The notes: generated by a model not told the origin, from the letters alone. A DNA stretch of 64,000 nucleotides from an uncultured Acidobacteriota bacterium (GCA_963748295.1 CAVVIH010000005.1:459500-523499); one strand, 5' to 3'; positions 7,653-22,917 are shown, counted from the first letter of the stretch. Program-made: numbers and translations.

Positions 7653-7656
7653 CGGT

Positions 7657-8155
7657 TCAGGACTTCCCGATTTCCTTCAGCCGGTGCTGAAGCGCGAGGC
7701 CCGACAGCTTGTCGAGTGGCAGGCTGGCGAAGAGTTCTATGCGCCTTCGCAGAACCAGGAACGCCTCGCGGAAGGCTCTGCGCTTCTCCTCATCAGTGCC
7801 AGTCACCGCCGCCGGATCCGGCACGCCCCAGTGCGCGGTCATCGGCTGCCCGGGCCAGAAGGGGCACGTCTCGCCTGCCGCCTGATCGCAGACCGTGATC
7901 ACGAAGTCCAGCGGCGGGGCGCCAGGCTTCGCGAATTCGTTCCAGCTCTTGCTCTTCAATCCCGTCGTCGAAAGCTTCTGTCGCTGCAGCTCCGCGATCG
8001 CCAGCGGGTGCGGCTCTCCCTTCGGATGGCTGCCGGCGCTGAACGCGCGGAACTTGCCGCCGCCGATGGCCGGATGGTTCATCGCCGATTCCGCCAGGAT
8101 CGACCTGGCGGAATTCCCGGTGCAAACGAAGAGTACGTTGAATACGACGGGACAT
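7657..8155 (-). CDS. arsC: Arsenate reductase, LMW-PTPase (thioredoxin-coupled) type; frame slip at codon 2-3
   Basis: The reading frame gives PVVFNVLFVCTGNSARSILAESAMNHPAIGGGKFRAFSAGSHP...VITVCDQAAGETCPFWPG, with the CTGNSARS P-loop. The only start (ATG 8155) is 1 nt out of frame across the G3 run 8149-8151. The track therefore shows only 7657-8082. Confidence 0.8.
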
Positions 8156-8169
8156 GATGCCCTCCCGGC

Positions 8170-8991
8170 CTATGCCAGCAACGGCTTTCGCGCACGCACG
8201 AACGCGCTTGCGAACTTGCCTTCGACCGCCTCGCCGATCGCATCGACGTCGATGCCGGCGTCGCCGAGGAACTGCCGCGCGTCGTTGACGCCGTAAACCC
8301 GCCAGGGCTCGACCTCGATGCCTTCGAAGCCGGCGTCGTCGAGCAGCCTTTGGTACTCCTCCTCGTGCAGCGCGCCGGCGACGCAGCCGACCCACAGCTC
8401 CATGTTGCGCCGGACTTCCGCCGGCACCTCGCCGCGGACGACGACGTCCGACACCGCGAAGCGGCCGCCCGGCTTCAGCACGCGAAACGCCTCGCGAAGG
8501 ACCTGTCCTTTGTCCGCCGACAGGTTGATCACGCAGTTCGAGATGACGACGTCGATCGAGGCGTCGGGCAACGGGATGTTCTCGATCTCGCCTTTGAGAA
8601 ACTCGACGTTGGCGGCGCCCGCCTTCTGCTGATTCTCGCGTGCGAGCGCCAGCATCTCGTCGGTCATGTCGAGGCCATAGACTTTTCCCTCCGGGCCGAC
8701 GCGACGCGCCGACAGGAACACGTCGATGCCGCCGCCGCATCCGAGATCCAGCACGGTCTGCCCCGGCTCGAGGGCGATGAGCGCAGTCGGATTCCCGCAG
8801 CCGAGCGAGGCATCAACGGCTTCCTTCGGCAGCGCGTCGGTCTCGTCGCTGGCGTAGAGATCCGATGTGATCGGATCGGCGCACCCGCACGACGTCCCAC
8901 AACAGCCGCCCTTGTCCGCTCCCGATCTGGCGCGGCGCGCAGCCTCCCCATACTTCTGTTGAATCGTTTCCTTCAAACCCTGCTCACTCAT
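8170..8991 (-). CDS. arsM: Arsenite S-adenosylmethionine methyltransferase
   Basis: Has N-terminal Cys pairs ([10 protein letters not shown]), the SAM motif [12 protein letters not shown], and the GCGNP and VISNCVINL motifs typical of ArsM. Confidence 0.88.
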
Positions 8992-9005
8992 GGCTGACTC
9001 CTTTG

Positions 9006-9031
9006 TATATATTCGCTATTGCGAATATATA
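9006..9031. promoter_or_regulatory. Candidate ArsR operator: perfect 11-bp inverted repeat TATATATTCGC-tatt-GCGAATATATA
   Basis: The arms 9006-9016 and 9021-9031 are exact reverse complements. The site lies in the 94-bp AT-rich divergent region between arsM and arsR. A second weaker inverted repeat, ATTATAT (9049-9055) / ATATAAT (9070-9076), lies nearby. Confidence 0.6.
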
Positions 9032-9085
9032 GAGCGTAGCCTGGCTGGATTATATCTGTCAATGACGAATATAATATGAGCCACA

Positions 9086-9490
9086 ATGGCTCCTGAAAAA
9101 GACCTGCTCTCGCTCGAAACCGTGCTCAAGGCCGTCGCCGACCGCACCCGGCTGCGGATCGTCCGGCTGCTGCTCGCGGGGGAGGTATGCGTCTGCGATA
9201 TCCACGAGAGCCTCGGCATCCCCCAGCCCAAGGCGTCGCGCCACCTGGCCTATCTGCGGCGAACGGGCCTGGTCGACGCCCGAAAGGATGGGCTTTGGGT
9301 GCACTACCGGCTGGCGCGCCTCGACGATCCGGTGCTGCAGGGCGTGCTGGACTCCGTCGCCCATGCCGTAGGACACCTGCGGACGCCGGCGCGTGACCTG
9401 CGGCGGCTGGCGAGGCGGATCGAGCTCACGCCCGCTGAGCCGGGGAACGAGTCCGGCTCCTGCTGCTCGCCCCTCCGCGAGGGTCGCTGA
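9086..9490 (+). CDS. arsR: ArsR/SmtB family metalloregulator
   Basis: Contains LKAVADRTRLRIVRLLLAGEVCVCDIHESLGIPQPKASRHLAYLRRTGLV: a wHTH with the CVC metalloid-binding motif. It is divergent from arsM-arsC. Confidence 0.88.
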   Translation: MAPEKDLLSLETVLKAVADRTRLRIVRLLLAGEVCVCDIHESLGIPQPKASRHLAYLRRTGLVDARKDGLWVHYRLARLDDPVLQGVLDSVAHAVGHLRTPARDLRRLARRIELTPAEPGNESGSCCSPLREGR

Positions 9491-9516
9491 CAGAATTCGC
9501 GTGGCGAGTCGCGTTC

Positions 9517-9556
9517 GTAACCCAGAATTAACCAGTGCGTCACCCCGCGGAAACCC
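9517..9556 (+). promoter_or_regulatory. Candidate Pho box / autoregulatory site: GTAACCC-N4-TTAACCA-N4-GTCACCC-N4-GAAACCC
   Basis: Four heptamers at 9517, 9528, 9539 and 9550 with exact 11-bp phasing. The array ends 31 nt upstream of the response-regulator ATG at 9588. Confidence 0.5.
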
Positions 9557-9587
9557 ATGACCGATAACCTCTTGTTCGGTTTACCTC

Positions 9588-10349
9588 ATGGAGATACGCG
9601 TGAACGACGCCAGAACGCCGCAACCGGCCGCGCCCGTCGCCGCGGCAGCCGTGAGCAGACCACGGCGCGTCCTCGTCGTGGAAGACGAGCAGGACATCGC
9701 CGGGTTGATCAAACACGCGCTCGAGCGATCGGGTGAGGGCACCGTCGAGATCGTCAGCACCGGAGACGCGGCGCTCCGCGCGGTAACCGAGCAGCCGCCG
9801 GATCTCGTCATCCTGGATCTGAACCTGCCGGTGCTGAGCGGCACCGAGGTGTGCCGCATCCTGCGAGGACGCCCGAGCACCGCGAACATTCCCATCATCA
9901 TGCTCTCGGCGCGCACGGCCGAAACCGATCGCGTCTCGGGCCTCGACCTCGGCGCCGACGATTACGTCACGAAGCCGTTCAGCTTGCGCGAGCTTGCGGC
10001 GCGCGTCAGAGCAGTCCTCCGGCGGCGGCAGCAGGGCGACTCCGCGGCGAGCACAACGAACCTCTACACGGGAGAGCACCTCGTCGCGGACTTCGATGCC
10101 GTCGCCATCAGCGTGGACGGCACCCCCGTGCGGCTCACACGCCGCGAGTTCGAGCTGCTCAAGTTTCTCGTGGAGAACCGGAACCGCGTGCTGTCGCGGG
10201 ACCGGCTGCTGGAACGCGTGTGGGGCTACGAGCGCTTCATCGAAACGCGTTCGGTGGACGTGCACGTGGGGCGTCTGCGCGCCAAGCTGGGGCCCGCCGG
10301 GCAGCAGATCGAGACCGTGGTCGGGCTCGGTTATCGATTCATCGACTGA
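9588..10349 (+). CDS. OmpR/PhoB-family response regulator (REC plus winged-helix trans_reg_C); no adjacent histidine kinase
   Basis: The receiver domain reads RVLVVEDEQDIAGLI...DLVILDLNLPVLSG...DDYVTKPFSLRELAARV. The C-terminal domain reads LTRREFELLKFLVENRNRVLSRDRLLERVWGY...VDVHVGRLRAKL...GLGYRF. Confidence 0.9.
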   Translation: MEIRVNDARTPQPAAPVAAAAVSRPRRVLVVEDEQDIAGLIKHALERSGEGTVEIVSTGDAALRAVTEQPPDLVILDLNLPVLSGTEVCRILRGRPSTANIPIIMLSARTAETDRVSGLDLGADDYVTKPFSLRELAARVRAVLRRRQQGDSAASTTNLYTGEHLVADFDAVAISVDGTPVRLTRREFELLKFLVENRNRVLSRDRLLERVWGYERFIETRSVDVHVGRLRAKLGPAGQQIETVVGLGYRFID

Positions 10350-10359
10350 GCGCCGGGGC

Positions 10360-10593
10360 TCAGTGGGCTTCGTTCAGCGCGCCGACCGGCGACTGCCAAC
10401 CCGCGTCCTCGAGCTCCGACACCCGCCGACGGATCGCTGACAGCGCCCGCTCGACACGATGCCAGTCGGTATAGTGGACGCGCCGGACGACGTGGCTGTC
10501 CTGCTCCTCGCGGAATTCCCATCCGATGCCACCGGCTTCGGAAACGATGAACCGTCGAGTATGCCCCGCTTGAATCAGCTCTTTTGCAAACAT
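10360..10593 (-). CDS. Hypothetical small protein (77 aa)
   Basis: The ORF has coding-like composition and is convergent with the response regulator (10-nt gap). It opens onto an AT-rich divergent region. I recognise no family. Confidence 0.4.
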   Translation of the reverse strand: MFAKELIQAGHTRRFIVSEAGGIGWEFREEQDSHVVRRVHYTDWHRVERALSAIRRRVSELEDAGWQSPVGALNEAH

Positions 10594-10659
10594 CGTCCTG
10601 GTTCCGTGAAGAAGATTGCTTTGGCACCTTCTTTTTATCCCAGGACCGGGGCGCCGGCT

Positions 10660-10676
10660 GTAAATACTGTGTAAAT
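10660..10676 (+). promoter_or_regulatory. Direct repeat GTAAAT-N5-GTAAAT (11-bp phasing) in an AT-rich divergent region
   Basis: GTAAAT occurs at 10660-10665 and 10671-10676. GTTCCGTGA also occurs twice (about 10607 and 10717). The site lies between the two small divergent ORFs. Confidence 0.3.
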
Positions 10677-10787
10677 TACTCGACGGCAGATGACATAACT
10701 CACATGTTATCAGCTAGTTCCGTGATAGTCGTCGACTTATTACGTGAAGTTTATGTTGACGACATTCTGCGTTAATGGACCCGCGCC

Positions 10788-11033
10788 ATGCTCCTCAGGG
10801 GACGGGAGGCGGCCATGGAAATGCGGTTTGACGATGCGGTTCAGCTGATTCGTCTGGAGTATCTGGAAATGCCGGGTATGGCGCTCACCTACGAGCAGGC
10901 CCGCCGTTTGTGGAATCTTCCGGCCGATCTGTGTCAGCGTGCCCTGGACGATCTCCTCGTCTCGCGCTTCCTCACGCTGACGCGCCACGGCGCCTACGTC
11001 CGCTGCGACGCCGGCACCCGGCACGTCACATGA
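10788..11033 (+). CDS. Hypothetical small protein (about 70-81 aa), possibly wHTH-like
   Basis: ORF MLLRGREAAMEMRFDDAVQLIRLEYLEMPGMALTYEQARRLWNL...; the real start may be the internal MEM. The family is not recognised. Confidence 0.4.
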   Translation: MLLRGREAAMEMRFDDAVQLIRLEYLEMPGMALTYEQARRLWNLPADLCQRALDDLLVSRFLTLTRHGAYVRCDAGTRHVT

Positions 11034-12117
11034 TGCCGGCGAAGAACAACACGAGCTCGAACACCAGGATCAGGACGATCGTCAGCTCCATCAGCTGGCC
11101 GCGCGCGATGGCGACCTGCTCGACGGCAAAGCCATAGATGTCGTCGAGCGTCTCGAGCTTGTCTTCGACACTCGCCTTCCACAACCCGACGCCGAGGCGC
11201 GCCGCCACGAGCTGAACCAGCCGGGCGGCATAGATGTCGCCGATCATCTTCAGCGCGTTCTGCGTGCGGTCCGTGATCTCGTTGACGTCGATGAACAGCG
11301 CGTGCAGCTGTTGCGTCGCCTTGACGTAGCCGCCGCCGGCGATGCTGATGAAACGCTGCCGCTTCTGGAGCTGGGCGTAGATGCGCCTCAGCTCGCGCTC
11401 GAGCAGCTCGTCGTAGTAGCGGAACTCGAGCAGCTGGGAGTTCGCGAACTCGAAGATCTCCAGCGCCGCCTGGGCGCCGGCCTCAGAGTCGTAGACGAAA
11501 GCCGCGTTCCAGGTGGGGACGACGAGATCGTCGGCGAGGTACGACAGCCGGTTGCGCAGGATGTCGTCCTGTTCCTGCGGGCTGAGCGCCTGCTGTTCGC
11601 CTCGGACGAGCAAGGCGATCTCGGCGGATCGCTGGGCGAGGAGCTGCTCCGCCGTGACGTGCGTGTCGAGCGTGGTGACCGAAACGACGAGATAGTCTTC
11701 CGACAGCCAGCCCGAACGCACGGCCGCGATCGGCGACTCGAGCTTCTGCACGGCGGCCCGCACGGCCGCTTCGGCCTGCCGCTCGAGCACCTCGTTCTCG
11801 ATGTAGCGCTGCGCCTGCGCGACGAGCGCCGGCCAGTCGCCGCTGAAGGGACGGGTCAGCGCGAGCGAAACGACGCCGTAATCGAAGAACTTGAAACGGG
11901 CGCTGAAGCCGTCGACCTCCGGCACGCCGAGCGCGGCGCCATCGACGACAAGCGGCGGGACCGCGTACTGGAAATAGGAGGGCGCGCCTGACTTCGGAAC
12001 GAACCTGGCCTCGGCGGCACCGGCGCCGATCACTTTCTGCAGCAGCGACAGGTCGATCGCCTCGGCGACGTCGAAAAGGAAGAACGCGGTGAGGCTTGCG
12101 GCGGTGATCTGCGGCAA
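11026..12117 (-). CDS. DUF155/RMD1-like (YagE-type) protein with a C-terminal TM helix
   Basis: 363 aa, TTG start. It contains FKFFDYGVVSLAL and a C-terminal LMELTIVLILVFELVLFFAGIM segment resembling DUF155 architecture. The assignment is from memory of the family. Confidence 0.5.
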   Translation of the reverse strand: MPQITAASLTAFFLFDVAEAIDLSLLQKVIGAGAAEARFVPKSGAPSYFQYAVPPLVVDGAALGVPEVDGFSARFKFFDYGVVSLALTRPFSGDWPALVAQAQRYIENEVLERQAEAAVRAAVQKLESPIAAVRSGWLSEDYLVVSVTTLDTHVTAEQLLAQRSAEIALLVRGEQQALSPQEQDDILRNRLSYLADDLVVPTWNAAFVYDSEAGAQAALEIFEFANSQLLEFRYYDELLERELRRIYAQLQKRQRFISIAGGGYVKATQQLHALFIDVNEITDRTQNALKMIGDIYAARLVQLVAARLGVGLWKASVEDKLETLDDIYGFAVEQVAIARGQLMELTIVLILVFELVLFFAGIM

Positions 12118-12144: not shown

Positions 12145-13260
12145 GTGATCCCCATTCGAACCGTCGCCCTGCTCTTCCTGCGTCTCGGCGCCACGGCATT
12201 CGGCGGCCCCGCCGCACATATCGCGCTCCTGCACCACGAGGTGGTGGCGCGCCGCAGATGGCTGACCGACGACGAATTCGGCGAGCTGCTGGCGCTGACC
12301 AACCTGATTCCGGGACCCAATTCGACGGAGATGGCGATCCACGTCGGCCGGCGCGTCGCCGGCTGGTGGGGGTTCGTTCTCGCCGGCGTCTGTTTCATCG
12401 TCCCCGCCGCGGTGATGGTGGCATGCCTGGCGGTGCTCTACGTCCACTACGGCCGCACACCCGATGCGCGGGCGGTGATGTCGGGGGTCGCTCCGGTGAT
12501 GCTGGCGGTGATCGCGCATGCGAGCGTCACGATCGGCAGGTCGCAGTTGCGAGGGCCCTTCGCATGGCTCACGGCCATTGCCGCTGCTGGCCTCGCCATC
12601 GCCGGAATCCACGAGCTCGCGCTCCTGCTTGGCGCGGGCCTGCTGTCGGTTGCGGCGAGGCGGACGGGAGTGCTCGCCGTGCTCGCGGCGAGCGGCGGGC
12701 TCATGAGCGCGCAGGCTGCCCAACCGGTGCAGGCAGCGGTTCCACTGACCGGGCTGTCGCTGTTCTTCCTCAAGGTCGGTTCCGTGCTCTTCGGCAGCGG
12801 GTACGTGCTCGTCGCGTTCCTGCGCGCCGATCTCGTGGAACGGTGGCGCTGGCTGACCGATCAGCAGCTCGTCGACGCGATCGCGGTCGGCCAGATGACG
12901 CCGGGACCGGTGTTCACGACCGCCACGTTCATCGGCTACGTGCTGCGCGGCGCGCCGGGCGCCGTGCTCGCGACGATCGCGATCTTTCTCCCGGCGTTCA
13001 TCTTCGTCGCGCTGACGCAGCCGCTGATCCCGCGCCTGCGCGCCTCCGCCGCCGCCAGCGCGTTCCTCAACGGCGTGACCGCGGCGTCCATCGGTCTCAT
13101 CGCCGCGGTCGCGGCGATGCTCGTTCCGGTCGTGCTGACGACCGCGGCCCAGTCAATCGCCGCGCTCGCGGCGCTGCTGGCGCTGCTCAGATGGCGCATC
13201 AACCCGTCATGGCTTTTGGTGGCCGGCGCCCTCCTCGGCTGGGCGGGAGTGTTCGGGTAG
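12145..13260 (+). CDS. chrA: Chromate transporter ChrA (two CHR domains)
   Basis: FLRLGATAFGGPAAHIALLHHEVVARRRWLTDDEFGELLALTNLIPGPNS in the first half and FGSGYVLVAFLRADLVERWRWLTDQQLVDAIAVGQMTPGPV in the second half. These are the classic duplicated CHR motifs. Confidence 0.9.
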   Translation: MIPIRTVALLFLRLGATAFGGPAAHIALLHHEVVARRRWLTDDEFGELLALTNLIPGPNSTEMAIHVGRRVAGWWGFVLAGVCFIVPAAVMVACLAVLYVHYGRTPDARAVMSGVAPVMLAVIAHASVTIGRSQLRGPFAWLTAIAAAGLAIAGIHELALLLGAGLLSVAARRTGVLAVLAASGGLMSAQAAQPVQAAVPLTGLSLFFLKVGSVLFGSGYVLVAFLRADLVERWRWLTDQQLVDAIAVGQMTPGPVFTTATFIGYVLRGAPGAVLATIAIFLPAFIFVALTQPLIPRLRASAAASAFLNGVTAASIGLIAAVAAMLVPVVLTTAAQSIAALAALLALLRWRINPSWLLVAGALLGWAGVFG

Positions 13261-13314
13261 GCAGACCTGAAGGTCTGCGCTACGTGCGCTCGTAGTGCAG
13301 GCCTTCAGGCCTGC
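13261..13314. repeat. Two related REP-like hairpins: GCAGACC-TGAA-GGTCTGC and GCAGGCC-TTCA-GGCCTGC
   Basis: Perfect 7-bp stems at 13261-13278 and 13297-13314, directly after the chrA stop and before glgC. There is no T-tract. Confidence 0.6.
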
Positions 13315-13334
13315 CACGCTAAGATGGTGGACGC

Positions 13335-14591
13335 ATGAACGACGTCCTCACCCTGATCCTGGGCGGCGGCCGCGGCGCTCGCCTGTTCCCGCTCACGCAC
13401 ATGCGCTCGAAGCCGGCCGTGCCGCTCGGCGGCAAGTACCGGCTGATCGACATTCCGATCAGCAACTGTCTCCACGCGGGACTCAAGCAGATCTTCGTGC
13501 TGACGCAGTTCAACTCGGCGTCGCTCAACCGCCACGTCGCGCAGACCTACAGGCTCGACATGTTCTCCGGCGGCTTCGTCGAAGTGCTCGCCGCCGAGCA
13601 GACGCCCGAGAGCTCGGACTGGTTTCAGGGAACGGCCGATGCGGTGCGGCAGGCCGCGCGTCACTTCAGGGGCTACGACGCGGATCACTATCTGATTCTC
13701 GCGGGCGACCACCTCTACCGCATGGACTTCTGCGAGCTGATCGACTCGCACATCGAGGATGGCGCCGACATCACCATCGCGGCGCAGCCGGTGAGCCGCG
13801 CCGACGCGACCCAGATGGGCATCTTCCGCTTCGACACGCTGGGCCAGATCGCCGGCTTCGAGGAGAAGCCGAACGAGGCACGGCTCACCGAGATGGGCGG
13901 CAGCACGCCGAAAGGCGCCACCGTCGGCGCCACCGGGCCCGACAAGCCATTCGTGGCGTCGATGGGCATCTACGTGTTCTCGCGCGAGGTGCTGCTCGAT
14001 CTGCTCGAGCAGCCGGGCATCGACTTCGGCAAGGAAGTCATCCCGAAGGCGCTGAACACGATGCGGGTGAACCCGTTCATCTTCCGCGGCTACTGGGCGG
14101 ACGTCGGCACCATCGAGGCGTTCTACGACGCCAACATCCAGCTGACGCGGCGCGCGGCGCCGTTCAACTTCTTCCATCCGCGGCGGCCGATCTACACGCA
14201 CCAGCGTTTCCTGCCGCCGAGCCGCGCGCACGGCGCGCAGATCGATTCGTCGATCGTCGCCGAAGGGTGCTACCTCGATCGCTGCGAGGTGCGCGACTCG
14301 CTCGTCAGCATCCGCACGCAGATCGGCCAGGGCACGCGGGTGACGCGATCGGTGCTGCTCGGCGCCGACTTCTACGAAGAGGAGTCGGGCGCCCACGCGA
14401 CGCCGCTCGGCATCGGCCGCGACGTCGTCCTCGATCGCGTGATCGTGGACAAGAACGCGCGCATCGGCAACGGCGTGCGCCTGGTCAATGAGGCGAACGT
14501 GCGGGAGGCGGACGGCGACGGGTATTACATCCGCAACGGCATCATCATCGTTCCCAAGGGCGGCGTCATCGCGGACGGTCTGAGCGCGTAG
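13335..14591 (+). CDS. glgC: Glucose-1-phosphate adenylyltransferase
   Basis: LILGGGRGARLFPLTHMRSKPAVPLGGKYRLIDIPISNC, WFQGTADAV, plus a left-handed beta-helix C-terminus. 418 aa. Confidence 0.93.
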   Translation: MNDVLTLILGGGRGARLFPLTHMRSKPAVPLGGKYRLIDIPISNCLHAGLKQIFVLTQFNSASLNRHVAQTYRLDMFSGGFVEVLAAEQTPESSDWFQGTADAVRQAARHFRGYDADHYLILAGDHLYRMDFCELIDSHIEDGADITIAAQPVSRADATQMGIFRFDTLGQIAGFEEKPNEARLTEMGGSTPKGATVGATGPDKPFVASMGIYVFSREVLLDLLEQPGIDFGKEVIPKALNTMRVNPFIFRGYWADVGTIEAFYDANIQLTRRAAPFNFFHPRRPIYTHQRFLPPSRAHGAQIDSSIVAEGCYLDRCEVRDSLVSIRTQIGQGTRVTRSVLLGADFYEEESGAHATPLGIGRDVVLDRVIVDKNARIGNGVRLVNEANVREADGDGYYIRNGIIIVPKGGVIADGLSA

Positions 14592-14602
14592 CGCGGGTCG
14601 GG

Positions 14603-15772
14603 TTGCGATATACTCGTCGCCGCGTGCCCCGTTTCGGTCTTGTGCCGGGCCTCGCGCTCCTCGCAGCGCTGATTCCCGGGTCCCTTTCAGCTCAGACGCC
14701 CGCGGGCCCGACGTTCACCTTCGCGGGCTATCTCCAGACGCAGTACAACCGGCTGTCGGTCGGCGACACGTCCCACGATCGCGTCATCTTCCGCCGCGCG
14801 ATCGTCGGCGTCGAAGCGGAATTGAGCGATCGCTGGATGGGCGAGCTGCAGGCGGACATCGCGCCCGTCTCACTCAGCGAGCGGATCGAGATCCGCGATG
14901 CCTACCTCCGCTACACGGGACTGGCGCCTCGCGGCCTCACCTTCACGTTCGGCAATCAGAAGCTGCCCTTCGCGCGCAGCGTGCTGGTGTCGTCGGCGCG
15001 CCGCGGCTTGGTCGAGCGTCCGGTGACGGGTGAACGGGCATACGGCGCCTCCGGCCGCGCCATCGCCTTCAAGGTCGACGGCCGTGACGTCGATCACCTG
15101 CTGCTCTGGTCCGCCGCGGTCGCGTCCGTCCATCATGCGCCGACGAGCGACCAGATTCGCCTCGACGGGCTGGCGACCTCGCGCGCCGACTGGAACGAAG
15201 GGGTGATGCTGGTAGGGCGCACGGAATGGCACCCGCGCGGCTTCGTGCCGCTCGAGCAGGGCGGGTTCGAGGTGAAGAAGACCATCGCGACGATCGGCGG
15301 CGGCGCGTATTACTGGGTCAACGACGGCGACAACAACCTCTTCACCATGGACGGCGCCAGCACGTCGCAGACCGCCGCCGATCTCGATCGCGCGACCGGC
15401 CTCGAACTGAGCGGCGGCGTGCGGGCGCCGCGGCTGTCGATCGACGCGGAGCTGCATCGCATCACCGGGCGCACGATCGATCCGGCCTTCACCGGCGGTC
15501 TGTACCACGCCGGCCGCACGCGCCTGATCAAGTCCTCGATCGAAGCGGGATACATGCTGGCGCCGCCGCACCTGGAATTGCTTGGCGGCGTCGAATCGCT
15601 CGACGTCGACGCCTACGATTCCGTCTCCTGGCGTCCCGCCGCCGGCGTCAACTGGTACGTCTACCGTCACAGGCTGAAGTTCCAATTCATGCAGCGCGAG
15701 ACGCTCAACGAGCTGGGCGTCCGCGGCGCGCACGGTCACGCGACGTACGTGCAGGCGCAGATCATGTTCTGA
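14603..15772 (+). CDS. Outer-membrane beta-barrel porin, phosphate-selective OprO/OprP-like
   Basis: Has a signal peptide (LALLAALIPGSLSAQ), alternating-hydrophobic strands, and a C-terminal YVQAQIMF. It starts 11 nt after the glgC stop. The family call is tentative. Confidence 0.55.
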   Translation: MRYTRRRVPRFGLVPGLALLAALIPGSLSAQTPAGPTFTFAGYLQTQYNRLSVGDTSHDRVIFRRAIVGVEAELSDRWMGELQADIAPVSLSERIEIRDAYLRYTGLAPRGLTFTFGNQKLPFARSVLVSSARRGLVERPVTGERAYGASGRAIAFKVDGRDVDHLLLWSAAVASVHHAPTSDQIRLDGLATSRADWNEGVMLVGRTEWHPRGFVPLEQGGFEVKKTIATIGGGAYYWVNDGDNNLFTMDGASTSQTAADLDRATGLELSGGVRAPRLSIDAELHRITGRTIDPAFTGGLYHAGRTRLIKSSIEAGYMLAPPHLELLGGVESLDVDAYDSVSWRPAAGVNWYVYRHRLKFQFMQRETLNELGVRGAHGHATYVQAQIMF

Positions 15773-15930: not shown

Positions 15931-16483
15931 ATGTTGTTCCTGTCGGCCGCACTAGCCACGCTCGCGGCCTTTGCCACGACCGGCGCCATCACGATCAACC
16001 GCGCTCCGGTGCGGATCGTGCGCAACGGCCACACGCTGCTGACCGCCAACGATCGCCGCGTCCGCGCGCTCGCGTCCGACGTGCAGGCGCTGATCGCGCG
16101 CGGCATGGCCAAGTCGAGCACGTTCTCGCGCCTGATGGTCGACATCGACAACACCGACGTGATCGCGTACGTCGAGTTCAATGACCGGCTGCCGATGGGC
16201 ACCGCCGGCCGGCTCGTGTGGGCGGTGTCTCCACCGCAGGGCCCGCGCTACCTGCGCATTCAGATCTCTCCGGACGGCACGCTCAACCAGCAGGTCGCCG
16301 TGCTCGCCCACGAGCTGCAGCACGCCCTCGAGGTCGCGGTCGCGCCGGACGTCCGGGACGTTCAGAGCTTCGCACGCCTTTACGATCGCATCGGCACCGG
16401 CAACACCGCCAGCCCGCTGCTACGACACCGATGCGGCGCAACTCATCGGCCGCCGGGTGATGCTCGAAATCCAGGGTTCCTGA
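15931..16483 (+). CDS. Secreted HExxH-motif protein, paralog 1 (one frame slip near 16415-16421)
   Basis: Signal peptide MLFLSAALATLAAFA. Contains ...VAVLAHELQHALEVAVAPDVRD...ARLYDRIG. The C-terminus YDTDAAQLIGRRVMLEIQGS lies in the +1 frame (track ORF 16181-16483) and aligns with the paralog 2 tail. Confidence 0.6.
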
Positions 16484-16566
16484 ATCGAGGGATTCCAAAT
16501 CCGCAATCGATTGGTCCCTTCATTCATCACGCGATATGTCCTTTTGTCTCGTGCGCGCACACTTCT

Positions 16567-16594
16567 AAACCACCGCGGCACTGGGGTCGTCTAA
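16567..16594 (+). promoter_or_regulatory. Candidate ECF-sigma-type promoter AAACC-N16-CGTCTAA
   Basis: The -10 heptamer and N16 spacing are identical to 15857-15884. The duplicated leader GGATGAGGGGC..GGAGG..CCCATGTT follows. Confidence 0.45.
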
Positions 16595-16688
16595 CTGCCC
16601 GAGTCGCCGGTATGGAGGCCGGCGGCTTCGTCGATGCAGCACGTCGGACGTGAATTGGATGAGGGGCTCTCCGCGAAGGGAGGGTCCC

Positions 16689-17258
16689 ATGTTCTGCCTG
16701 ATACCTGCGCTACTCGCCGCGCTCGTCGTCGGCGTTGCGCCCGCGAGCCTGACGCCATCGCCGCGGTCGAGACCGCCGCTGCATGTCTATCGGGGCATCG
16801 CCCCCGAATACGAAGCGCTGTTGACCGCGCCCCAGCGCCGGCTGCGCGCAACAGACCCACGGATGCAGGCCTTGATCGCGGAGGGCCTCCGCCGCTCGCC
16901 GACCTTCGCGCAGCTGCTCGCCGACCTCGAGAAGACCGACCTCATTGCCTACGTCGAACGCATTCAAAACATGCCGGCGGTGATGTCGGGACGGCTGCTC
17001 TTCGTGTCGGCGTCGCCCGCGCAGCGGTACGTCCGCATTCAGTTGGGGACGGGCGGCACGAACGCGGACGCGATCGTCACGCTCGCGCACGAGCTGCAGC
17101 ACGCAATCGAGGTGGGGACGTCACCGGACGTGCGCGATCAGGAGGCGCTCGCCCGGCTGTACCAGCGGATTGGCCAGAACAGCCTGAGCGGGCATACTTA
17201 CGACACGGTCGCGGCGCAGTCTGCGGGCAAGCTGGTACGCCGGGAACTCGAGGGGTGA
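16689..17258 (+). CDS. Secreted HExxH-motif protein, paralog 2
   Basis: Starts MFCLIPALLAALVVGVAPAS. Contains ...IVTLAHELQHAIEVGTSPDVRDQEALARLYQRIG. It is collinear with paralog 1 over the whole length. I prefer the ATG at 16689, by analogy with the conserved leader/RBS of paralog 1. Confidence 0.6.
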   Translation: MFCLIPALLAALVVGVAPASLTPSPRSRPPLHVYRGIAPEYEALLTAPQRRLRATDPRMQALIAEGLRRSPTFAQLLADLEKTDLIAYVERIQNMPAVMSGRLLFVSASPAQRYVRIQLGTGGTNADAIVTLAHELQHAIEVGTSPDVRDQEALARLYQRIGQNSLSGHTYDTVAAQSAGKLVRRELEG

Positions 17259-18178
17259 GCCGGGGGCAGGCGCGACAGCCAGAACATCACTGACGGCGCC
17301 GCAAAGGCGCCGACCGCCAGCCACGCGCTCGTCCGGTCGGATTTCCGGCTCTGCACGAGCCCATGGACGATCCCACGAAGAGTGTCTCGGGATTTGGCGG
17401 CGTATTCCTCGTGCAGCCGGCGCATGTCCGAGCGAACCCACGCGAGGAGCGAGGCGTACTCTTCGGGAATCGCCCCGCTCGCGCATTCCGCTTCCACCAG
17501 ATCTGCCAGCGTCTGACGGTCGTGCAGGCTTCCGAGCTGCTGCTGAACGCTCTTGAGCGTTTTGAGCGTGCGCTTTCGATCCGGACCATCCAGCGCGAAC
17601 TCGAGCAGGTAGCGCAGCTTCTTGGCCGAGATGCGTACGGCATGCGTCCGGTTTGGAAGGTCCACGCCGCCGGCGCGCTCCACGTCATCCCACAGCTTTC
17701 GCGCGCGGGTTCCGATTCCGGCCCCGATCGCGCGCGCGCGCGCCGCCGACCGCTTGGTGAATCGGAATGGCGAGCGGAGCTCACGGACCGCGGACTCGAG
17801 ATCGTCGAGCGCCAGGCGTTCGAACTTCTTCACCAGGTCCCGTCGAGCGGCGGCCTGGCGATCCATCAGTTTCAGCCGGAGTGCCGTGATTGCCCGTGAC
17901 GCCGACGGAATCCGCAGCTCCAGCCCCTCGAGCTGCTTGACCGAAACGTCGGCGTCGCGCGCCGCGCCAAGCGCGCGACCGATTCGACGGAGCAGCGCGG
18001 ATGTCGCCTCCGTCTGCTGCTCGGGGAGCCCGGCCGTCACAACCGGCAGCAGCGCGCGCAGGCGACGCGTCGCGACGCGCGCATCGTGGACAGCTCCTCT
18101 ATTCCCTTCGCGAATGCCGGGAGCGTTACTGAGCAGTATGTCGAAGTTGGTATGAAAGGCGCGATCCAGGCTGGTCAT
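17198..18178 (-). CDS. CHAD domain protein (polyphosphate-granule-associated family)
   Basis: CHAD signatures VHDARVATRRLRALL, AVRISAKKLRYLLEF and VQQQLGSLHDRQ are present. I prefer the start at ATG 18178 (GGAG 9 nt upstream) over 18202. The 3' end overlaps the convergent HExxH paralog 2 by 61 nt, so the true stop is uncertain. Confidence 0.8.
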   Translation of the reverse strand: MTSLDRAFHTNFDILLSNAPGIREGNRGAVHDARVATRRLRALLPVVTAGLPEQQTEATSALLRRIGRALGAARDADVSVKQLEGLELRIPSASRAITALRLKLMDRQAAARRDLVKKFERLALDDLESAVRELRSPFRFTKRSAARARAIGAGIGTRARKLWDDVERAGGVDLPNRTHAVRISAKKLRYLLEFALDGPDRKRTLKTLKSVQQQLGSLHDRQTLADLVEAECASGAIPEEYASLLAWVRSDMRRLHEEYAAKSRDTLRGIVHGLVQSRKSDRTSAWLAVGAFAAPSVMFWLSRLPPAHPSSSRRTSLPADCAATVS

Positions 18179-18218
18179 CTCGATACTCCGAGTGATCAGC
18201 ATGCAAGAAGCGGGCGAC

Positions 18219-18719
18219 TCAGGACAGCTTGCGGAGCATCAGCGGCGTCACGAACCACCGCAGTTGGCCATGCCCCTTCGGCGGAAGCACCTCGAAGTCG
18301 ATCCGGCAGATCGCCCCCTTCTTGAACTCGATCGGACTGCGGGCTCCGATCAGCCGCGCCGCGAGCTCGCCAAGGTTGGGTTCATGGCCGACAAGGGCGA
18401 TTCGCCCTTTCTTTGAGTGCCGGGCCAGCTCCTGGATCACGGCAGCAGGCGTGCCTGCCGGCGTGAGCGCGTCGCTCGTCGCCACCGGCGGCTTCGACTT
18501 CATCGTCTCGGCGAAGACATCCGCCGTCTGCTTCGCGCGCACGAGCGGACTGGTAATGATTTGATCGAACTCGACCCCGAGATCGTCGAGCGCCTTGGCT
18601 TCGCGCTTCAGCCGGGCGATGCCCTTCGCGATCAACGGACGCTTCGAGTCGTCTGGATACGCCTCGCCGCGCTCCGCAGCGACGCCGTGACGAATGATGT
18701 AGATCTCCCAGGTCGCCAT
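18219..18719 (-). CDS. sixA: Phosphohistidine phosphatase SixA
   Basis: IYIIRHGVA (RHG catalytic motif) ...ITSPLVRAKQTA...LVGHEPNLGEL. 166 aa. Confidence 0.88.
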   Translation of the reverse strand: MATWEIYIIRHGVAAERGEAYPDDSKRPLIAKGIARLKREAKALDDLGVEFDQIITSPLVRAKQTADVFAETMKSKPPVATSDALTPAGTPAAVIQELARHSKKGRIALVGHEPNLGELAARLIGARSPIEFKKGAICRIDFEVLPPKGHGQLRWFVTPLMLRKLS

Positions 18720-18725
18720 GGTCGA

Positions 18726-19704
18726 TCAGCGGTGGGACGTACCAGCCGAGGCCTTCGACAGCGACGCGGCGCGCGCGGCGGACGATGACAGCTTCATCTT
18801 CAGCGGTCCGCGCGATTTGCGACGCCGCGCCACCTGAGGTGCGACGACTGCCTGGATGTCGTCGATCGCGGCCTGCAGCGCGCCGACGGTCGCGAGGTAG
18901 CGCGCATGCAGATGACGGCACTCCTCTTCGAGTTGCCGCGAGATGATTTCGAGGCCGCCCTCGCGCGCCGGATGCGCGCGGCGGCTGCGCCTGCACGGCG
19001 GCGACGTGCGTCTGCAGCACCTGCACGTCGTGCAGACGGCCGAGCGTGTCCTGCACCCGCTTGATGGTCCGCACCGCGTGAGTCGCCGCCTTCACGCCGG
19101 TCTCCCCGCCACTTCCGCCGCGTAACGCAGCTTCTTTGCCGCGATGCGCACCATGTGAAGCCGCTCGGCCTCGTACAACTGACCCGCGTCCGCGACTGCT
19201 GCGCGCAGTGCCTTGGATCGCTTCAGCAGGCGCTTCGAGAGCGCCTCACGCCAGTCGTCTGTTCCGGCCTGCTCGAGCGTCTGCGCCAGCGACGTGAGCC
19301 GCTTATCGAGCTTGTCGACGTTCACACGCCCGAGCCGCTTCAGCATCACCTCGCGACGGCGCTCCTGCTCCTTCATGACGTACGCGCGGACGTCTTCGAG
19401 GGCCAGACGGGGCACCCCTTCGCGCTTGACCAGTTCGTCGATCAGCGCCACCGTGACATCGAGCTCCCGGATCGCCCCGAGCGCGCCCGTAATCCTGCGG
19501 ATCTTCCGTCGCGCCTTGTCGGCTTTGCTGTCCTTCAGGCCGGTCGCGAGCACGGGCACGGCCTCGCGCAGCCGGCGCGAGGCCACCCGTGCCTGGTGAA
19601 CGCCAACCCCATTCCCTGCAGCAGCTTCCGCGAGATGGCGCTTCAGCGCCTGGCTGCGGCGGGCCAGTAACACGGTCGTTACAGGTGGGTTAACGCGGTT
19701 CATG
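18726..19704 (-). CDS. CHAD domain protein, second copy (two frame slips near 19100 and 18975)
   Basis: VHQARVASRRLREAV, MVRIAAKKLRYAAEVAG, then after a slip at a G4 run ETGVKAATHAVRTIKRVQDTLGRLHDVQVL, then a third frame LEIISRQLEEECRHLHARYLATV...SHR ending at 18726. The start is uncertain (ATG 19704 or a downstream GTG). Confidence 0.7.
19668..19696 (+). promoter_or_regulatory. Candidate Pho box: GTAACAC-N4-GTTACAG-N4-GTTAACG
   Basis: Heptamers at 19668, 19679 and 19690 with 11-bp phasing, about 125 nt upstream of ppx. The array overlaps the first codons of the CHAD ORF if ATG 19704 is used. Confidence 0.5.
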
Positions 19705-19819: not shown

Positions 19820-21487
19820 ATGCGCATCGCAGCCATCGACATAGGCACCAACTCGGTTCACATGATCGTCGTGCAGGTCCGGCCCGACCTGTCGTTCGAA
19901 GTCATCGATCGCGAAAAGGACATGGTGCGCCTGGGCGCGGGGGGCCTCGATGGCCGCAACCTGACCCCGACCGCCATGAGCGCGGCGATGCAGACGCTCT
20001 CGAAGTTCCGGCGGCTGGCCGAATCGCACAAGGTGGACGAAATCGTCGCCGCGGCCACCAGCGCCACGCGCGAAGCCGAGAACGGCGGCGACTTTATCGC
20101 CGAGGTTCTCCGCGAGACCGGAATCGCCATCCGCGTCATCTCCGGCACCGAAGAAGCGCGCCTCATTCACCTCGCGGCGGGGTACGGCGTGGACATCGGC
20201 GGCACCACCGCGGTCGTCGTGGACATCGGCGGCGGCAGCGTCGAGGTCACGCTCGGAACCGCCACGCATCTGACGCTCGGCCGCAGCTTCAAGACCGGCG
20301 TGATCAGGCTGACCGAGCGTTTCGTCCAGAGCGATCCGTTGTCGAGCGGGAACGAGCGGCGCCTCATCAAGCACCTCAATCGCGAGATGGGCGCGTATCT
20401 GGACCAGATTGCCGCGCGCGGCTTCGACCGGGTGATCGGCACGTCCGGCACGATTCTGAGCCTTGGCGCGATGGCGTCGAGCGACGAATCGGGAAGCGTC
20501 GAAGACCTCCGCAACCTTCAAGTCTCCGCCAAGGCGCTTCACAAGCTCCGCAAGCGCATTGTCGAATCGGATATCGGGGAGCGCCTGAAGATTCCCGCGA
20601 TGGATCCGCGCCGCGCGGATCTGTCGGTCGCCGGCTCGGTGCTGTTCGACACCATCGTCCGCCGTCTCGGCGCCGACGAATTCACGCTGTGCGACCTGGC
20701 GCTCCGTGAGGGTCTGGTCCTCGACTACATCCATCGGAACAGCGCGAAGATCCGCAAGGCGGAGCGCTACCCCGACGTCCGCCGGCGCAGCGTGATCGAG
20801 CTGGGCGAACGCTGCGGCTACTGGTCGGAGCACGCGCAGCAGGTGGCGCGGCTCGCGTTGAGCATTTTCGACCAGACACGCAGCGTGCACGGCTTGTCGG
20901 ACAAAGAGCGTGAGTGGCTCGAGTTCGGCGCGCTGCTGCACGACGTCGGCGTGCACATCAGCTACGAGCGTCATCACCGGCATTCGTACTACCTGATCAA
21001 GAACGGCGATCTCCGCGGCTTCAATCCGCAGGAGATCGAGGTCATCGCGCTGCTCGCCCGCTATCACCGTCAGGCCACGCCGAAGAAATCGCACGACGGA
21101 TATACGGATCTCTCCGGCACGCAGCGGGGAACCGTGAAAACGCTCTCGGCGATGGTGCGCCTCGCGGAAGGCCTCGATCGCAGCCACGCCCAGGCACTCT
21201 CGGGACTCGATATCTTCCCGCGCGGCGACGATTATCTCGTCCGGCTGCGGGCGTCAGGAGACGCGGAGCTCGAGCTGTGGGCCGCGCACCGGCACGTCGC
21301 GCCGCTGGAGAAAGTGCTCGGCAAGCCAATACGCTTCGAAGTCGCCGGCAGCGACTACAAGGAACGCGCGAAAAATGGTGAACAACCTGACCACACCGCA
21401 CGTGCACCCGGGAAAGCTGTTCGTGGTCGAAGGCATCGACGGGTCGGGAAAGACGACGCAGCTCGCGCTGCTGGCAAAGTGGCTTAG
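19820..21487 (+). CDS. ppx: Exopolyphosphatase / guanosine pentaphosphate phosphohydrolase (Ppx/GppA) with a C-terminal HD domain
   Basis: IAAIDIGTNSVHMIVV, VVDIGGGSVEV, and HD region LLHDVGVHISYERHHRHSYYLI. The last roughly 37 codons overlap the next gene by 113 nt and look like out-of-frame read-through (Arg/Ala-rich), so the real stop may be earlier. Confidence 0.88.
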   Translation: MRIAAIDIGTNSVHMIVVQVRPDLSFEVIDREKDMVRLGAGGLDGRNLTPTAMSAAMQTLSKFRRLAESHKVDEIVAAATSATREAENGGDFIAEVLRETGIAIRVISGTEEARLIHLAAGYGVDIGGTTAVVVDIGGGSVEVTLGTATHLTLGRSFKTGVIRLTERFVQSDPLSSGNERRLIKHLNREMGAYLDQIAARGFDRVIGTSGTILSLGAMASSDESGSVEDLRNLQVSAKALHKLRKRIVESDIGERLKIPAMDPRRADLSVAGSVLFDTIVRRLGADEFTLCDLALREGLVLDYIHRNSAKIRKAERYPDVRRRSVIELGERCGYWSEHAQQVARLALSIFDQTRSVHGLSDKEREWLEFGALLHDVGVHISYERHHRHSYYLIKNGDLRGFNPQEIEVIALLARYHRQATPKKSHDGYTDLSGTQRGTVKTLSAMVRLAEGLDRSHAQALSGLDIFPRGDDYLVRLRASGDAELELWAAHRHVAPLEKVLGKPIRFEVAGSDYKERAKNGEQPDHTARAPGKAVRGRRHRRVGKDDAARAAGKVA

Positions 21488-22073
21488 CGCCGCCGGCCAT
21501 CCGGTGTTCGTCACCGAGTGGAACTCGTCGGCGATCGTCAAGGCGGCGACGAAAACCGGCAAGAAGAAGAACGCGCTGACGCCGATGACGTTCAGCCTGT
21601 TGCACGCCACGGACTTCGCCGATCGCCTCCTTTACAACGTCATTCCCCCGCTCAAGGCCGGCATGATCGTGCTGGCCGATCGCTATGCCTATACCGCCTT
21701 CGCGCGCGATGCCGCGAGAGGCGTCGATCGGCACTGGGTGCGTGAGCTGTACAGCTTCGCGGTCAAACCGGACCTCAGCGTCTACTTCAAGGTGCCGCTC
21801 GACGTCTCGACCGATCGACTCCTGGCGCGGCGCGTGAAGCTCAAGTTCTACGAAGCCGGCATGGACATGGGCTGGAGCACGAACGTCATCGAGAGCTTCC
21901 GGATTTTCCAGGGCCGCGTGCTCGACGAGTACGATCGGCTCGTCGAGGAGTTCGACCTGAGCGTCATTCCGGCGCACGGCAGCATCACCGACCAGCAGCG
22001 CACGTTCCGCAAGCTGGTCTCTCAGCACCTGCAGATCAAGGACACCGATGAACAGCTCGACGAGCTTGCCTGA
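21375..22073 (+). CDS. Thymidylate-kinase-like P-loop kinase, copy 1 (canonical Walker A)
   Basis: FVVEGIDGSGKTTQ (Lys codon at 21450-21452) and LADRYAYTAFA (DRY-like). It is longer and more divergent than housekeeping Tmk. Confidence 0.7.
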   Translation: MVNNLTTPHVHPGKLFVVEGIDGSGKTTQLALLAKWLSAAGHPVFVTEWNSSAIVKAATKTGKKKNALTPMTFSLLHATDFADRLLYNVIPPLKAGMIVLADRYAYTAFARDAARGVDRHWVRELYSFAVKPDLSVYFKVPLDVSTDRLLARRVKLKFYEAGMDMGWSTNVIESFRIFQGRVLDEYDRLVEEFDLSVIPAHGSITDQQRTFRKLVSQHLQIKDTDEQLDELA

Positions 22074-22851
22074 GGGAGAGCCTCAGGCCCGTAAGAGCAC
22101 CCGCGACGATACGCGCAGCGACCCGTCGGGCGCGTCGGCCGTGAAGCCCGGGAGCTATTACGGCAACGGCATCCCCTATCTGCCGATCGAGGGCTACCCC
22201 GGAAAGATCATCGCGATCGAAGGCACCGATGGCGTCGGCCGGACGACGCAGATCAGGCTGCTGCGGGAGTGGCTGGAGGTCCAGGGCTACGGCGTGATCG
22301 AAACCGGGTGGACGCGCTCCCAGCTGATGCAGCCGACGATCGATCTGGCCAAAGGCAGCAACACGCTCAACAAGCTGACGTTCGTGCTGCTGTATGCCAC
22401 CGACTTCGCGGACCGCCTTGAAAAGGAAATCATTCCAGCCCTCAAAGCCGGCTTCGTGGTCCTCTCCGACCGTTACATCTTCACGGCAATGGCGCGGGCG
22501 GGAGTACCAGGCGTCGATCGCACCTGGGTCCGCAATCTCTACGGGTTCGCCATTGCGCCCCACCTCGTCTTCTACCTCAAGACCGACGAGAAGACGCTGA
22601 TCCGCCGCGTGCTGCAGTCGCGCGGCATGGATTTCTGGGAATCGGGCATGGACATGAAGCTCGGCGACGACATTTACGAGAGCTTCCGCGCCTACCAGCG
22701 CGCGATGCTCCGAGAGTTCACCTCGATGTCCGAAGAGTTCGGGTTCCGGGTGCTCGACGCGCGCCGGAAGATCGACGTCATCCAGGAAGAGCTCCGCCGG
22801 CAGATCGGGGCCTTCCTGGCCGAAAGCGATGGCGGAAGGCCGGGCGACTAG
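22048..22851 (+). CDS. Thymidylate-kinase-like P-loop protein, copy 2 (Walker A Lys replaced by Arg)
   Basis: IAIEGTDGVGRTTQ (CGG Arg codon at 22240-22242) and LSDRYIFTAMA. It is collinear with copy 1 (FVLLYATDFADRL vs FSLLHATDFADRL; FWESGMDM vs FYEAGMDM) and overlaps it by 26 nt. Confidence 0.7.
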   Translation: MNSSTSLPEGEPQARKSTRDDTRSDPSGASAVKPGSYYGNGIPYLPIEGYPGKIIAIEGTDGVGRTTQIRLLREWLEVQGYGVIETGWTRSQLMQPTIDLAKGSNTLNKLTFVLLYATDFADRLEKEIIPALKAGFVVLSDRYIFTAMARAGVPGVDRTWVRNLYGFAIAPHLVFYLKTDEKTLIRRVLQSRGMDFWESGMDMKLGDDIYESFRAYQRAMLREFTSMSEEFGFRVLDARRKIDVIQEELRRQIGAFLAESDGGRPGD

Positions 22852-22854
22852 GTG

Positions 22855-22883
22855 GTTACACAGAATTTACACGTGTGAAACTG
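22855..22883 (+). promoter_or_regulatory. Candidate Pho box: GTTACAC-N4-TTTACAC-N4-GAAACTG
   Basis: Heptamers at 22855, 22866 and 22877. The array starts 4 nt after the preceding stop and ends 35 nt before the pstB ATG. Confidence 0.5.
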
Positions 22884-22917
22884 GCGGGAAATCGCCGGCA
22901 GTTAGGCTGAATCTCGC

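Follow-up and report, generated by a model that had tools for sequence, protein, structure and literature searches.

In the canonical arrangement, the genes for the Pst phosphate transporter and for the signalling protein PhoU form a contiguous pstSCAB-phoU operon. Pst components need not be co-transcribed, as illustrated by Caulobacter, where pstS lies apart from pstCAB-phoU-phoB, and by mycobacteria, whose phoY genes are unlinked from pst. Here we describe a locus from a soil acidobacterium of the order Vicinamibacterales (Acidobacteriota) that resembles these dispersed systems but in which the cut lies between pstA and pstB, and not at pstS or phoU. In the 64-kb stretch of DNA that we analysed (G000:C5:459500-523499, hereafter the window, with coordinates counted from its first nucleotide), pstSCA and pstB-phoU are separated by a block of other genes. 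The difference from the canonical operon is clade-wide: pstA and pstB are 6.6-32.5 kb apart, and pstB-phoU, equipped with its own array of Pho-box-like repeats, comes after a polyphosphate operon.

Martiny 2006 and Coleman and Chisholm 2010 reportedly described marine cyanobacterial genomic islands whose content of phosphate-acquisition genes varies. Streptococcus pneumoniae has two evolutionarily distinct Pst systems, Pst1 and Pst2 (PMC4913102). The locus described here is similar to both in that deeply diverged Pst front ends occur in close relatives and phosphate-uptake genes are exchanged; it differs in that the two types alternate at one site and the ATPase-PhoU half is not exchanged along with them. 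Unlinked ABC ATPases that serve several tasks are also known, namely MsmX in B. subtilis and MsiK in Streptomyces (PMC7658222). With these the locus shares an ATPase gene placed away from the permeases and a probable compatibility, here across genomes, with more than one permease set. However, its ATPase is a dedicated PstB orthologue and each genome has one pstCA set, so that we do not see one ATPase energising several importers in the same cell.

The genes that precede pstB-phoU recall yet another system. Saci_2019/2020 of Sulfolobus acidocaldarius form the heteromeric polyphosphate kinase PPK3 (Hofmann et al., J Biol Chem 2026, PMC12995831). Its operon has the order sixA-ppx-cPPK3-rPPK3-CHAD, PPK3 neighbourhoods include PstS/PstC, and the enzyme is said to occur in 'a few bacteria' (PMC12995831). 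Taken one by one, the parts of our locus are all members of known families. The locus is unusual in that pstA and pstB are cut apart throughout the clade, pstB-phoU is attached to a PPK3 operon, and the membrane half is exchanged in situ between two old Pst families. In the literature that we searched, we found no description of a pstA/pstB cut with pstB-phoU joined to a polyphosphate operon, and the combination of pstB-phoU with PPK3 is not among the PstS/PstC neighbourhoods noted in PMC12995831. The arrangement does not reveal a new mechanism; it maps, clade-wide, a phosphate homeostasis locus of Vicinamibacterales (Acidobacteria subdivision 6), which are abundant in soils and wastewater and have relatives that store polyphosphate and glycogen, and it places the recently discovered PPK3 in a widespread bacterial group.

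The separated pst genes and their conservation

The source genome (G000) comprises 8 contigs and 5.9 Mb, with 66% G+C, and is 86% complete. We assigned gene identities from the listing of open reading frames (ORFs), third-position GC (GC3) and Pfam and NCBIfam scans, applying the equivalog cut-offs. The membrane half of the transporter is encoded on the plus strand by pstS (4766-5842), pstC (5861-6802) and pstA (6792-7652). The PstS protein is of the E. coli type (PBP_like_2 domain; TIGR00975, 391.7 bits for a cut-off of 205); its ORF is open from a TTG at 4649, the ATG at 4766 being the likely start. PstC matches TIGR02138 (305.6 bits, cut-off 196) and PstA matches TIGR00974 (276.5 bits, cut-off 193). 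pstA is the final gene of this half, with no ATPase gene after it. On the same strand, pstB (22918-23748; TIGR00972, 401.5 bits, cut-off 343.2) and phoU (23741-24436; TIGR02135, 223.7 bits, cut-off 130; two PhoU domains) follow only after 15,265 nt (7653-22917) that hold at least 18 genes on both strands; phoU overlaps the pstB stop by 8 nt. All five proteins score above their own NCBIfam equivalog cut-offs, and the window contains no contiguous pstSCAB(-phoU) operon, which is a criterion of gene order and not of biochemistry.

An earlier note on this DNA had proposed that the pst operon is split by 15.3 kb, with pstSCA ending at 7652 and pstB starting at 22918, and all its coordinates hold. 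It had also named a second intact pstB elsewhere, together with an assembly chimera, as one of the observations that would overturn this view. Our search of the source genome, to the extent of its 86% completeness, found only one PstB-class ATPase, the next ABC ATPase being 35% identical, and one pstC/pstA pair. Likewise, 100%-complete relatives with the split carry a single pstB.

The positions of pstA and pstB were determined in 112 family members and in 40 relatives; many of the nearest relatives are long-read soil metagenome-assembled genomes (MAGs). An orthologue at least 67% identical to the pstA of the window was counted as being of the same type. This type was found on one contig with pstB in 38 family genomes from 11 genera; in every one of them pstA is upstream and on the strand of pstB, separated from it by 6.6-32.5 kb, and the two are never adjacent. 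The split occurs also in three further genera with the other pstA type (see below) and in other families of the order. This synteny comparison, which the earlier note had suggested as a check, found the split conserved across the family and the order, and the block to be neither a random nor a recent insertion. The split is the norm in Vicinamibacterales.

Gene content was compared in nine split loci from other genera, four loci of genus g18, three of genus g5 and 80 Vicinamibacterales loci, the latter retrieved with the first of two thymidylate kinase-like (Tmk-like) proteins of the block as query. The conserved backbone consists of pstSCA...PhoB-like regulator, glgC, one gene for an HExxH protein, sixA<-CHAD, and ppx->Tmk-like 1->Tmk-like 2->pstB->phoU->gltA. 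The variable parts are arsC, arsM/arsR, a gene for a 363-aa protein, chrA, a porin gene, the second CHAD gene and the second HExxH gene; they occupy three slots, one behind each of pstA, the regulator and glgC. G014, the closest relative, has none of the variable parts in its interval, which measures 8.8 kb. Judging by gene order, synteny of the split pst genes and the phosphate/polyphosphate core extends over at least 11 genera of the family and reaches other families of the order.

As a separate observation, a second pstB, 63-67% identical, lies on the opposite strand 9-15 kb beyond pstSCA in several relatives (G056, G057, G062, G064, G080, G083 and G084) and not in the genome of the window.

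The Tmk-like gene pair and the pstSCA cassette

The two genes just upstream of pstB had been labelled Tmk-like in the earlier note; both are present as described, and their sequences are better read as those of a PPK3-type polyphosphate kinase pair. Tmk-like 1 (21375-22073, plus strand) would be the cPPK3-like subunit, with a canonical GSGKTTQ P-loop, and Tmk-like 2 (22048-22851, plus strand) the rPPK3-like subunit, with the Walker-A lysine changed to arginine. By far the best solved relative of both proteins is S. tokodaii STK_15430, a cPPK3 homologue (2PLR/5H70, E 1e-53 for the first; 2PLR, E 3e-41 for the second). A P-loop of the form GSGK[TS]TQ is found in all 93 orthologues of Tmk-like 1, and GVGR[ST]TQ (P-loop codons at ~22231-22251 in the window) together with DRY in all 90 Vicinamibacterales orthologues of Tmk-like 2. 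We also considered the two genes as spare thymidylate kinases or as PPK2, which we rejected: both fall just below the dTMP-kinase cut-off, a housekeeping tmk above that cut-off is located on contig C1, two PPK2 genes are present elsewhere in the genome, and the crenarchaeal cPPK3 homologue matches best. A ppk1 gene was not found in the genome. Most PPK3 genomes of PMC12995831 lack both PPK1 and PPK2, which is not a strict criterion.

Upstream of the pair and on the same strand lies ppx (19820-21487; Ppx-GppA plus domain III), encoding an exopolyphosphatase. It is preceded on the minus strand by CHAD2 (18716-19703; PF05235), which contains two frame slips, sixA (18219-18719; His_Phos_1; SixA TIGR00249, 95.4 bits for a cut-off of 74.5) and CHAD1 (17198-18202; PF05235). 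This neighbourhood of ppx, sixA and CHAD is conserved in the 80 loci. The same five gene families, including the tandem Tmk-like pair, with a canonical tmk elsewhere, are found in the Sulfolobus PPK3 operon, near which PstS/PstC had already been noted. Since the pair matches both Sulfolobus PPK3 and its operon, the conserved half of the block can be read as a PPK3-type polyphosphate module. There are several differences: here CHAD-sixA is divergent from ppx-PPK3, pstB-phoU is appended, two PPK2 genes are present, and in the second subunit it is the Walker-A lysine, not the DRX arginine, that has changed.

The junction between rPPK3 and pstB, which in the window is a gap of 66 nt with no terminator, recurs at 39-237 nt in 37 of the 80 Vicinamibacterales loci, whereas 15 loci have another insert at this place and five have pstSCA in between. 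In contrast with the 'few bacteria' mentioned in PMC12995831, an even sample of 201 Acidobacteriota genomes contains 32 with tandem PPK3-like pairs, among them all eight of family f35 and 10 of the 14 of family f37. In the same phylum sample, PPK3-pstB adjacency was not found outside Vicinamibacterales, save for one convergent case.

In the family, PstA falls into two deep types, ~70-83% and 35-40% identical to that of the window, and PstB is 72-90% identical throughout. Type 1, to which the window belongs, has an E. coli-type PstS (TIGR00975) and type 2 a PstS_2-type protein (TIGR02136), both accompanied by bona fide PstC/PstA. The two types are mutually exclusive in ~85 genomes, with the exceptions of G090 and G096, which have a separate complete second system, and both cassette types are found within single genera (g18, g5 and g12). 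The clearest case is that of two genomes of one genus, G059 (type 1) and G064 (type 2), which are collinear with 82-92% DNA identity over 38 kb. Their similarity includes the region upstream of pstS and that from the regulator to gltA, with the ~3-kb pstSCA in between showing no detectable DNA similarity; moreover, G059 is closer to G064 than to the same-type G058. Since the loss of similarity is confined to pstSCA, these genes are exchanged as a cassette at a fixed site, while pstB-phoU, 7-33 kb away, stays. Genus g5 displays the same swap pattern in a less clean form. That pstSCA is an exchangeable cassette had escaped the earlier note. We also considered whether the two pstA types could be ancient paralogues that coexist, and rejected this, as they are mutually exclusive (with the two exceptions above) and take each other's place at a single site.

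When the two types are compared, PstC/PstA are best conserved in the EAA loop (15-18 of 25 positions identical, compared with 33-36% overall), as expected for the family. Because these docking loops are conserved, one PstB could serve both cassettes and would then energise whichever is present. Nine family genomes (G003, G007, G012, G015, G049-G052 and G076) have a contiguous pstSCAB-phoU next to ppx(-PPK3); in them a type-2 cassette stands directly upstream of pstB, in the order ppx-PPK3-pstSCAB-phoU. The sister family f2 has ppx-pstSCAB-phoU without PPK3. These type-2 contiguous loci and the layout of f2 suggest a contiguous ancestral state and a relocation of pstSCA.

The split itself might have been selected, an idea that we put forward only tentatively and consider doubtful. 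A fixed cytoplasmic PstB-PhoU module, co-located and perhaps co-transcribed with Ppx-PPK3, would then be opposed to an exchangeable PstSCA envelope module; PstB would be promiscuous, and PstB/PhoU might interact with PPK3. If so, import, signalling and polyphosphate/ATP buffering could be set together and the envelope part replaced by one of a deeply diverged type with the signalling undisturbed. The cassette swap is a natural example of an ABC importer that retains its ATPase/regulator half while its membrane half alternates between two old families. It lends itself to the question of how such exchange is tolerated by ATPase-permease specificity and by PhoU signalling.

Pho-box-like arrays, proposed functioning and alternative explanations

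The two halves of the pst system share a type of upstream repeat. We scanned the window for units of the form [GT][TA][ATC]AC occurring three times at exact 11-bp phasing, using as null Markov-1 random sequences that keep the dinucleotide transitions of the window. Six three-unit arrays were found, compared with 0.01 expected, in five places that are all beside phosphate genes and all in the first 23 kb. One array (590-616) is upstream of DUF47-pit. The second, made of GTWAC-like units upstream of pstS (4609-4700, plus strand; three-unit array scored at 4656-4682), sits in the intergenic region common to a divergent TonB-dependent receptor gene. Before the regulator gene there is a four-unit array (9517-9554, plus strand), scored as two overlapping three-unit matches, which ends ~33 nt before the ATG and is conserved in L013, L016, L017 and L020. 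A further three-unit array (19667-19693) occupies part of the first CHAD2 codons and stands 127-153 nt ahead of the ATG of ppx, and the CHAD2/ppx intergenic region holds a conserved two-unit GTTACA-N5-GTTATATAC element. Finally, a four-unit array (GGTTACA/ATTTACA/TGAAACT/GGAAATC; 22855-22897, plus strand; three-unit match 22855-22881) is located 21 nt before the ATG of pstB, in agreement with the earlier note, which had assigned pstB-phoU a candidate Pho box of its own. An equivalent TTTACA-N5-TTTACA-N5-GAAAY-N6-GAAAC is found upstream of pstB in nearly all relatives with a direct rPPK3-pstB junction. The locus thus resembles the E. coli Pho regulon in having 11-bp-phased direct repeats before its units, a PhoR-like kinase and PhoB-like regulators nearby, and five Pst-PhoU proteins that pass the equivalogs, but the core of the repeat is GTWAC/TTTACA and not CTGTCAT. 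This putative regulon supplies testable regulator sites.

Where relatives have a further insert separating rPPK3 from pstB (L052, L054, L060, L071, L074, L079, L080 and L082), a conserved GGTAAGTA...CTTACC palindrome-like element and ATTTAAC-N5-GAAATG precede pstB; this may be the site of another regulator.

Phosphate genes extend beyond the window. In the region made up of G000:C5:455970-459500 (L115, L123), on its left, and window positions 2-616, there are a frame-broken gene for a PhoB-like regulator and one for an sCache-HAMP-PAS histidine kinase, the best PhoR/PnpS match of the genome, within ~4 kb to the left of the window start. After this pair, Pit (PHO4) and DUF47 are encoded on the minus strand. 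With the PhoR-like kinase, the regulator and Pit-DUF47 included, the phosphate cluster therefore spans ~28 kb.

We consider it likely that this locus is a conserved Vicinamibacterales phosphate-homeostasis supercluster that encodes one Pst transporter in two separate transcription units. The first unit, pstSCA, would provide the binding protein and the two permeases, and the second, pstB-phoU, the ATPase and the signalling protein, the latter unit being placed directly downstream of the polyphosphate operon ppx-cPPK3-rPPK3, which is itself divergent from CHAD-sixA(-CHAD). At low phosphate, a PhoB-type regulator would bind the arrays and co-induce both pst units along with its own gene, pit and the polyphosphate genes. 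PstB would dock on PstC/PstA via the conserved EAA loops, and PhoU and PstB would report the status of the transporter to the PhoR-like kinase on the left of the window. PPK3, Ppx and the CHAD proteins are predicted to manage a polyphosphate store and glgC one of glycogen; the presence of glgC in the core fits, since Vicinamibacteraceae cells hold both polyphosphate and glycogen in situ (PMC8100337). Read-through from ppx-PPK3 into pstB-phoU, across the short terminator-free gap, may tie phosphate import to polyphosphate turnover. In this genome, the variable slots that separate pstA from the regulator, the regulator from glgC and glgC from the HExxH gene have taken up arsC-arsM/arsR, the 363-aa gene with chrA, and the porin gene.

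Several points weigh against this scheme. We infer the transcription units, the regulator binding and the induction by phosphate starvation from the DNA. The best NCBIfam match of the orphan regulator within the block is PhoB (TIGR02154), at 229.7 bits for a cut-off of 296.2, and a second PhoB-like regulator exists beside the PhoR-like kinase, which makes two candidates for array binding. The array at 19667-19693 is within the coding sequence of CHAD2 and only partly conserved, and in this genome glgC, chrA, arsM/arsR and the porin gene have no three-unit array of their own. The rPPK3-like subunit retains the DRX arginine that the Sulfolobus regulatory subunit lost, so it may have a different lesion or still be active. 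Lastly, the 86% completeness of the genome leaves some room for a second pstB.

Among the alternatives, the one that survives best concerns the variable genes. The ars, chrA, porin, 363-aa and HExxH genes might share no function and simply occupy a tolerant insertion slot next to the frequently recombining pstSCA cassette. This would fit with a cargo that differs between genera in content, position and orientation and has no three-unit arrays of its own, next to a pstSCA that is itself exchanged: among the nine split loci compared, arsC, chrA and the porin gene are found only in the window and recur elsewhere (e.g., in the g18 loci), and arsM/arsR are present in some relatives. However, ars and/or chrA genes occur in 8 of the 22 fully covered pstA-pstB intervals, far above chance for 10-30 kb of a 6-Mb genome, and several genera have a porin O/P-like gene after glgC. 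Arsenate, in addition, is a known substrate analogue for Pst/Pit. We hold this explanation to be unlikely; the association of ars/chr genes with the phosphate cluster is non-random and recurrent, without being a fixed membership. The functional supercluster envisaged in the earlier note thus stands as regards the core of phosphate and polyphosphate genes, which is conserved and belongs to a cluster larger than proposed. Its unifying theme, according to which almost every gene of the block handles a tetrahedral oxyanion or a phosphate polymer, is not a conserved principle, arsC, chrA and the porin gene being variable cargo.

A second alternative takes the physical tie of pstB-phoU to ppx-PPK3, and not to the permeases, at face value: PstB and PhoU would serve mainly in polyphosphate control or signalling, and PstCA would be energised by an unlinked ABC ATPase. 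PhoU is linked to polyphosphate levels and influences polyphosphate accumulation (PMC13577022), and there are multitask ATPases whose genes lie apart from those of their permeases (PMC7658222). Nevertheless, PstB passes its equivalog cut-off whereas the next ABC ATPase of the genome is only 35% identical, the EAA docking loops are conserved in both cassettes, and both units carry the same type of array. We find this possibility quite improbable.

More improbable still is that a recent mobile or genomic island broke a contiguous pstSCAB-phoU in this lineage, even though the contiguous form exists in nine family genomes and in sister family f2, and the ars, chrA and porin genes are lineage-specific. 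No integrase or transposase domain was detected among the ORFs scanned, a tRNA search yielded none, and no direct repeats bracket the block, as the earlier note had already remarked. The comparison of GC and codon usage that it had recommended shows the block to be native: its GC (0.661) equals that of the genome (0.661), and no gene, cargo included, departs in codon usage from the null distribution of the genome itself. The core of the block predates the family, with the split found in 11 genera for this pstA type, in three more for the other and in other families; only small cargo segments look like later additions. An assembly chimera hiding a truly contiguous operon has a negligible probability: the many single-base indel frame slips are typical of long-read MAGs, yet indels do not create rearrangements, and the pstA->arsC junction recurs in L057, the rPPK3->pstB junction in another 37 loci that stem from different studies and assemblers, and the split in 38 of 38 genomes. 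Because both junctions recur in independent assemblies and the composition is native, an assembly artefact and a recent island are both contradicted and, within the reach of sequence comparison, excluded.

Genes and minor features of the intervening block

From pstA onwards, the block is composed of arsC and arsM (minus strand), arsR (plus), the gene for the PhoB-like regulator, two small ORFs and the 363-aa gene (minus), followed by chrA, glgC, the porin gene and two HExxH genes (plus), CHAD-sixA-CHAD (minus), and ppx with the two Tmk-like genes (plus). The arsC gene (7657-8156, minus strand), of the LMWP type (LMWPc match; CTGNSARS motif, CX5R), is convergent with pstA, with 4 nt between the stops. 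The absence of a terminator in this junction had been pointed out before and is borne out, since a terminator scan and a folding analysis of it gave nothing above chance. The CTGNSARS motif is upstream of the listed ATG in the same frame, with a probable assembly frame slip near the 5' end, and ArsC is below its equivalog cut-off. Elsewhere arsC, a variable cargo gene, adjoins pstA only in L057. It is followed by arsM (8170-8991, minus strand), for an arsenite methyltransferase (NF008823, 366.4 bits for a cut-off of 263), and by arsR (9086-9490, plus strand; HTH_5). The block therefore contains the elements of an ars operon, namely ArsR, an arsenate reductase and ArsM as detoxifying output; no arsB/acr3 gene lies within it.

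The orphan PhoB-like response regulator of the OmpR family (9588-10349, plus strand; Response_reg and Trans_reg_C) is followed by two small divergent ORFs, at 10360-10593 (minus strand, 77 aa) and 10788-11033 (plus strand, ~72-81 aa), around an AT-rich spacer of 200 nt. The 0.7-kb stretch that holds them is the only low-GC part of the block (GC ~0.5). The next gene (11026-12117, minus strand; GC3 0.91) encodes a 363-aa protein that has a membrane helix at its C-terminus and to which neither Pfam nor NCBIfam gave a match. It is semi-conserved cargo: its gene lies between the regulator and glgC in L056-L063, and several genera have it either at that place or close to the cluster. chrA (12145-13260, plus strand), for a protein of the chromate transporter family (PF02417, 273 bits), is variable cargo, present in the g18 loci and in G012 and missing from most other loci.

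glgC (13335-14591, plus strand; NTP_transferase and LbH_GLGC), for glucose-1-phosphate adenylyltransferase, is a core member, present in eight of the nine split loci and in many of the 80 loci. A -10-like element, TAAGAT/TAnnnT, lies 7-10 nt upstream of its start codon (13310-13334) and is kept in relatives (L012-L018), and similar elements are found ahead of arsR and gltA; such proximity to the start suggests leaderless or near-leaderless mRNAs. The porin O/P-like outer-membrane protein (14603-15772, plus strand) matches PF07396 weakly and in its N-terminal part only (34.3 bits for a cut-off of 20.9); its gene is variable cargo that recurs in L049, L102, G055, G080 and G081. The two paralogous secreted HExxH proteins (15931-17258, plus strand) were recognised from their translations, the first copy having a frame slip; one copy belongs to the core, with homologues between glgC and sixA in most relatives. 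Single-base frame slips are located at ~8150 (arsC), ~16418 (first HExxH gene), and ~18975 and ~19100 (CHAD2). Since the orthologues are intact, they are probably long-read assembly errors rather than marks of pseudogenes.

An Rfam scan of 1-30 kb of the window gave no match. Downstream of phoU there is a yacG-like ORF and then gltA. Between phoU and the yacG-like ORF, positions 24470-24696 are occupied by a tandem array of 41-42-bp units, and short repeat arrays are also found after phoU in L017 and L020.

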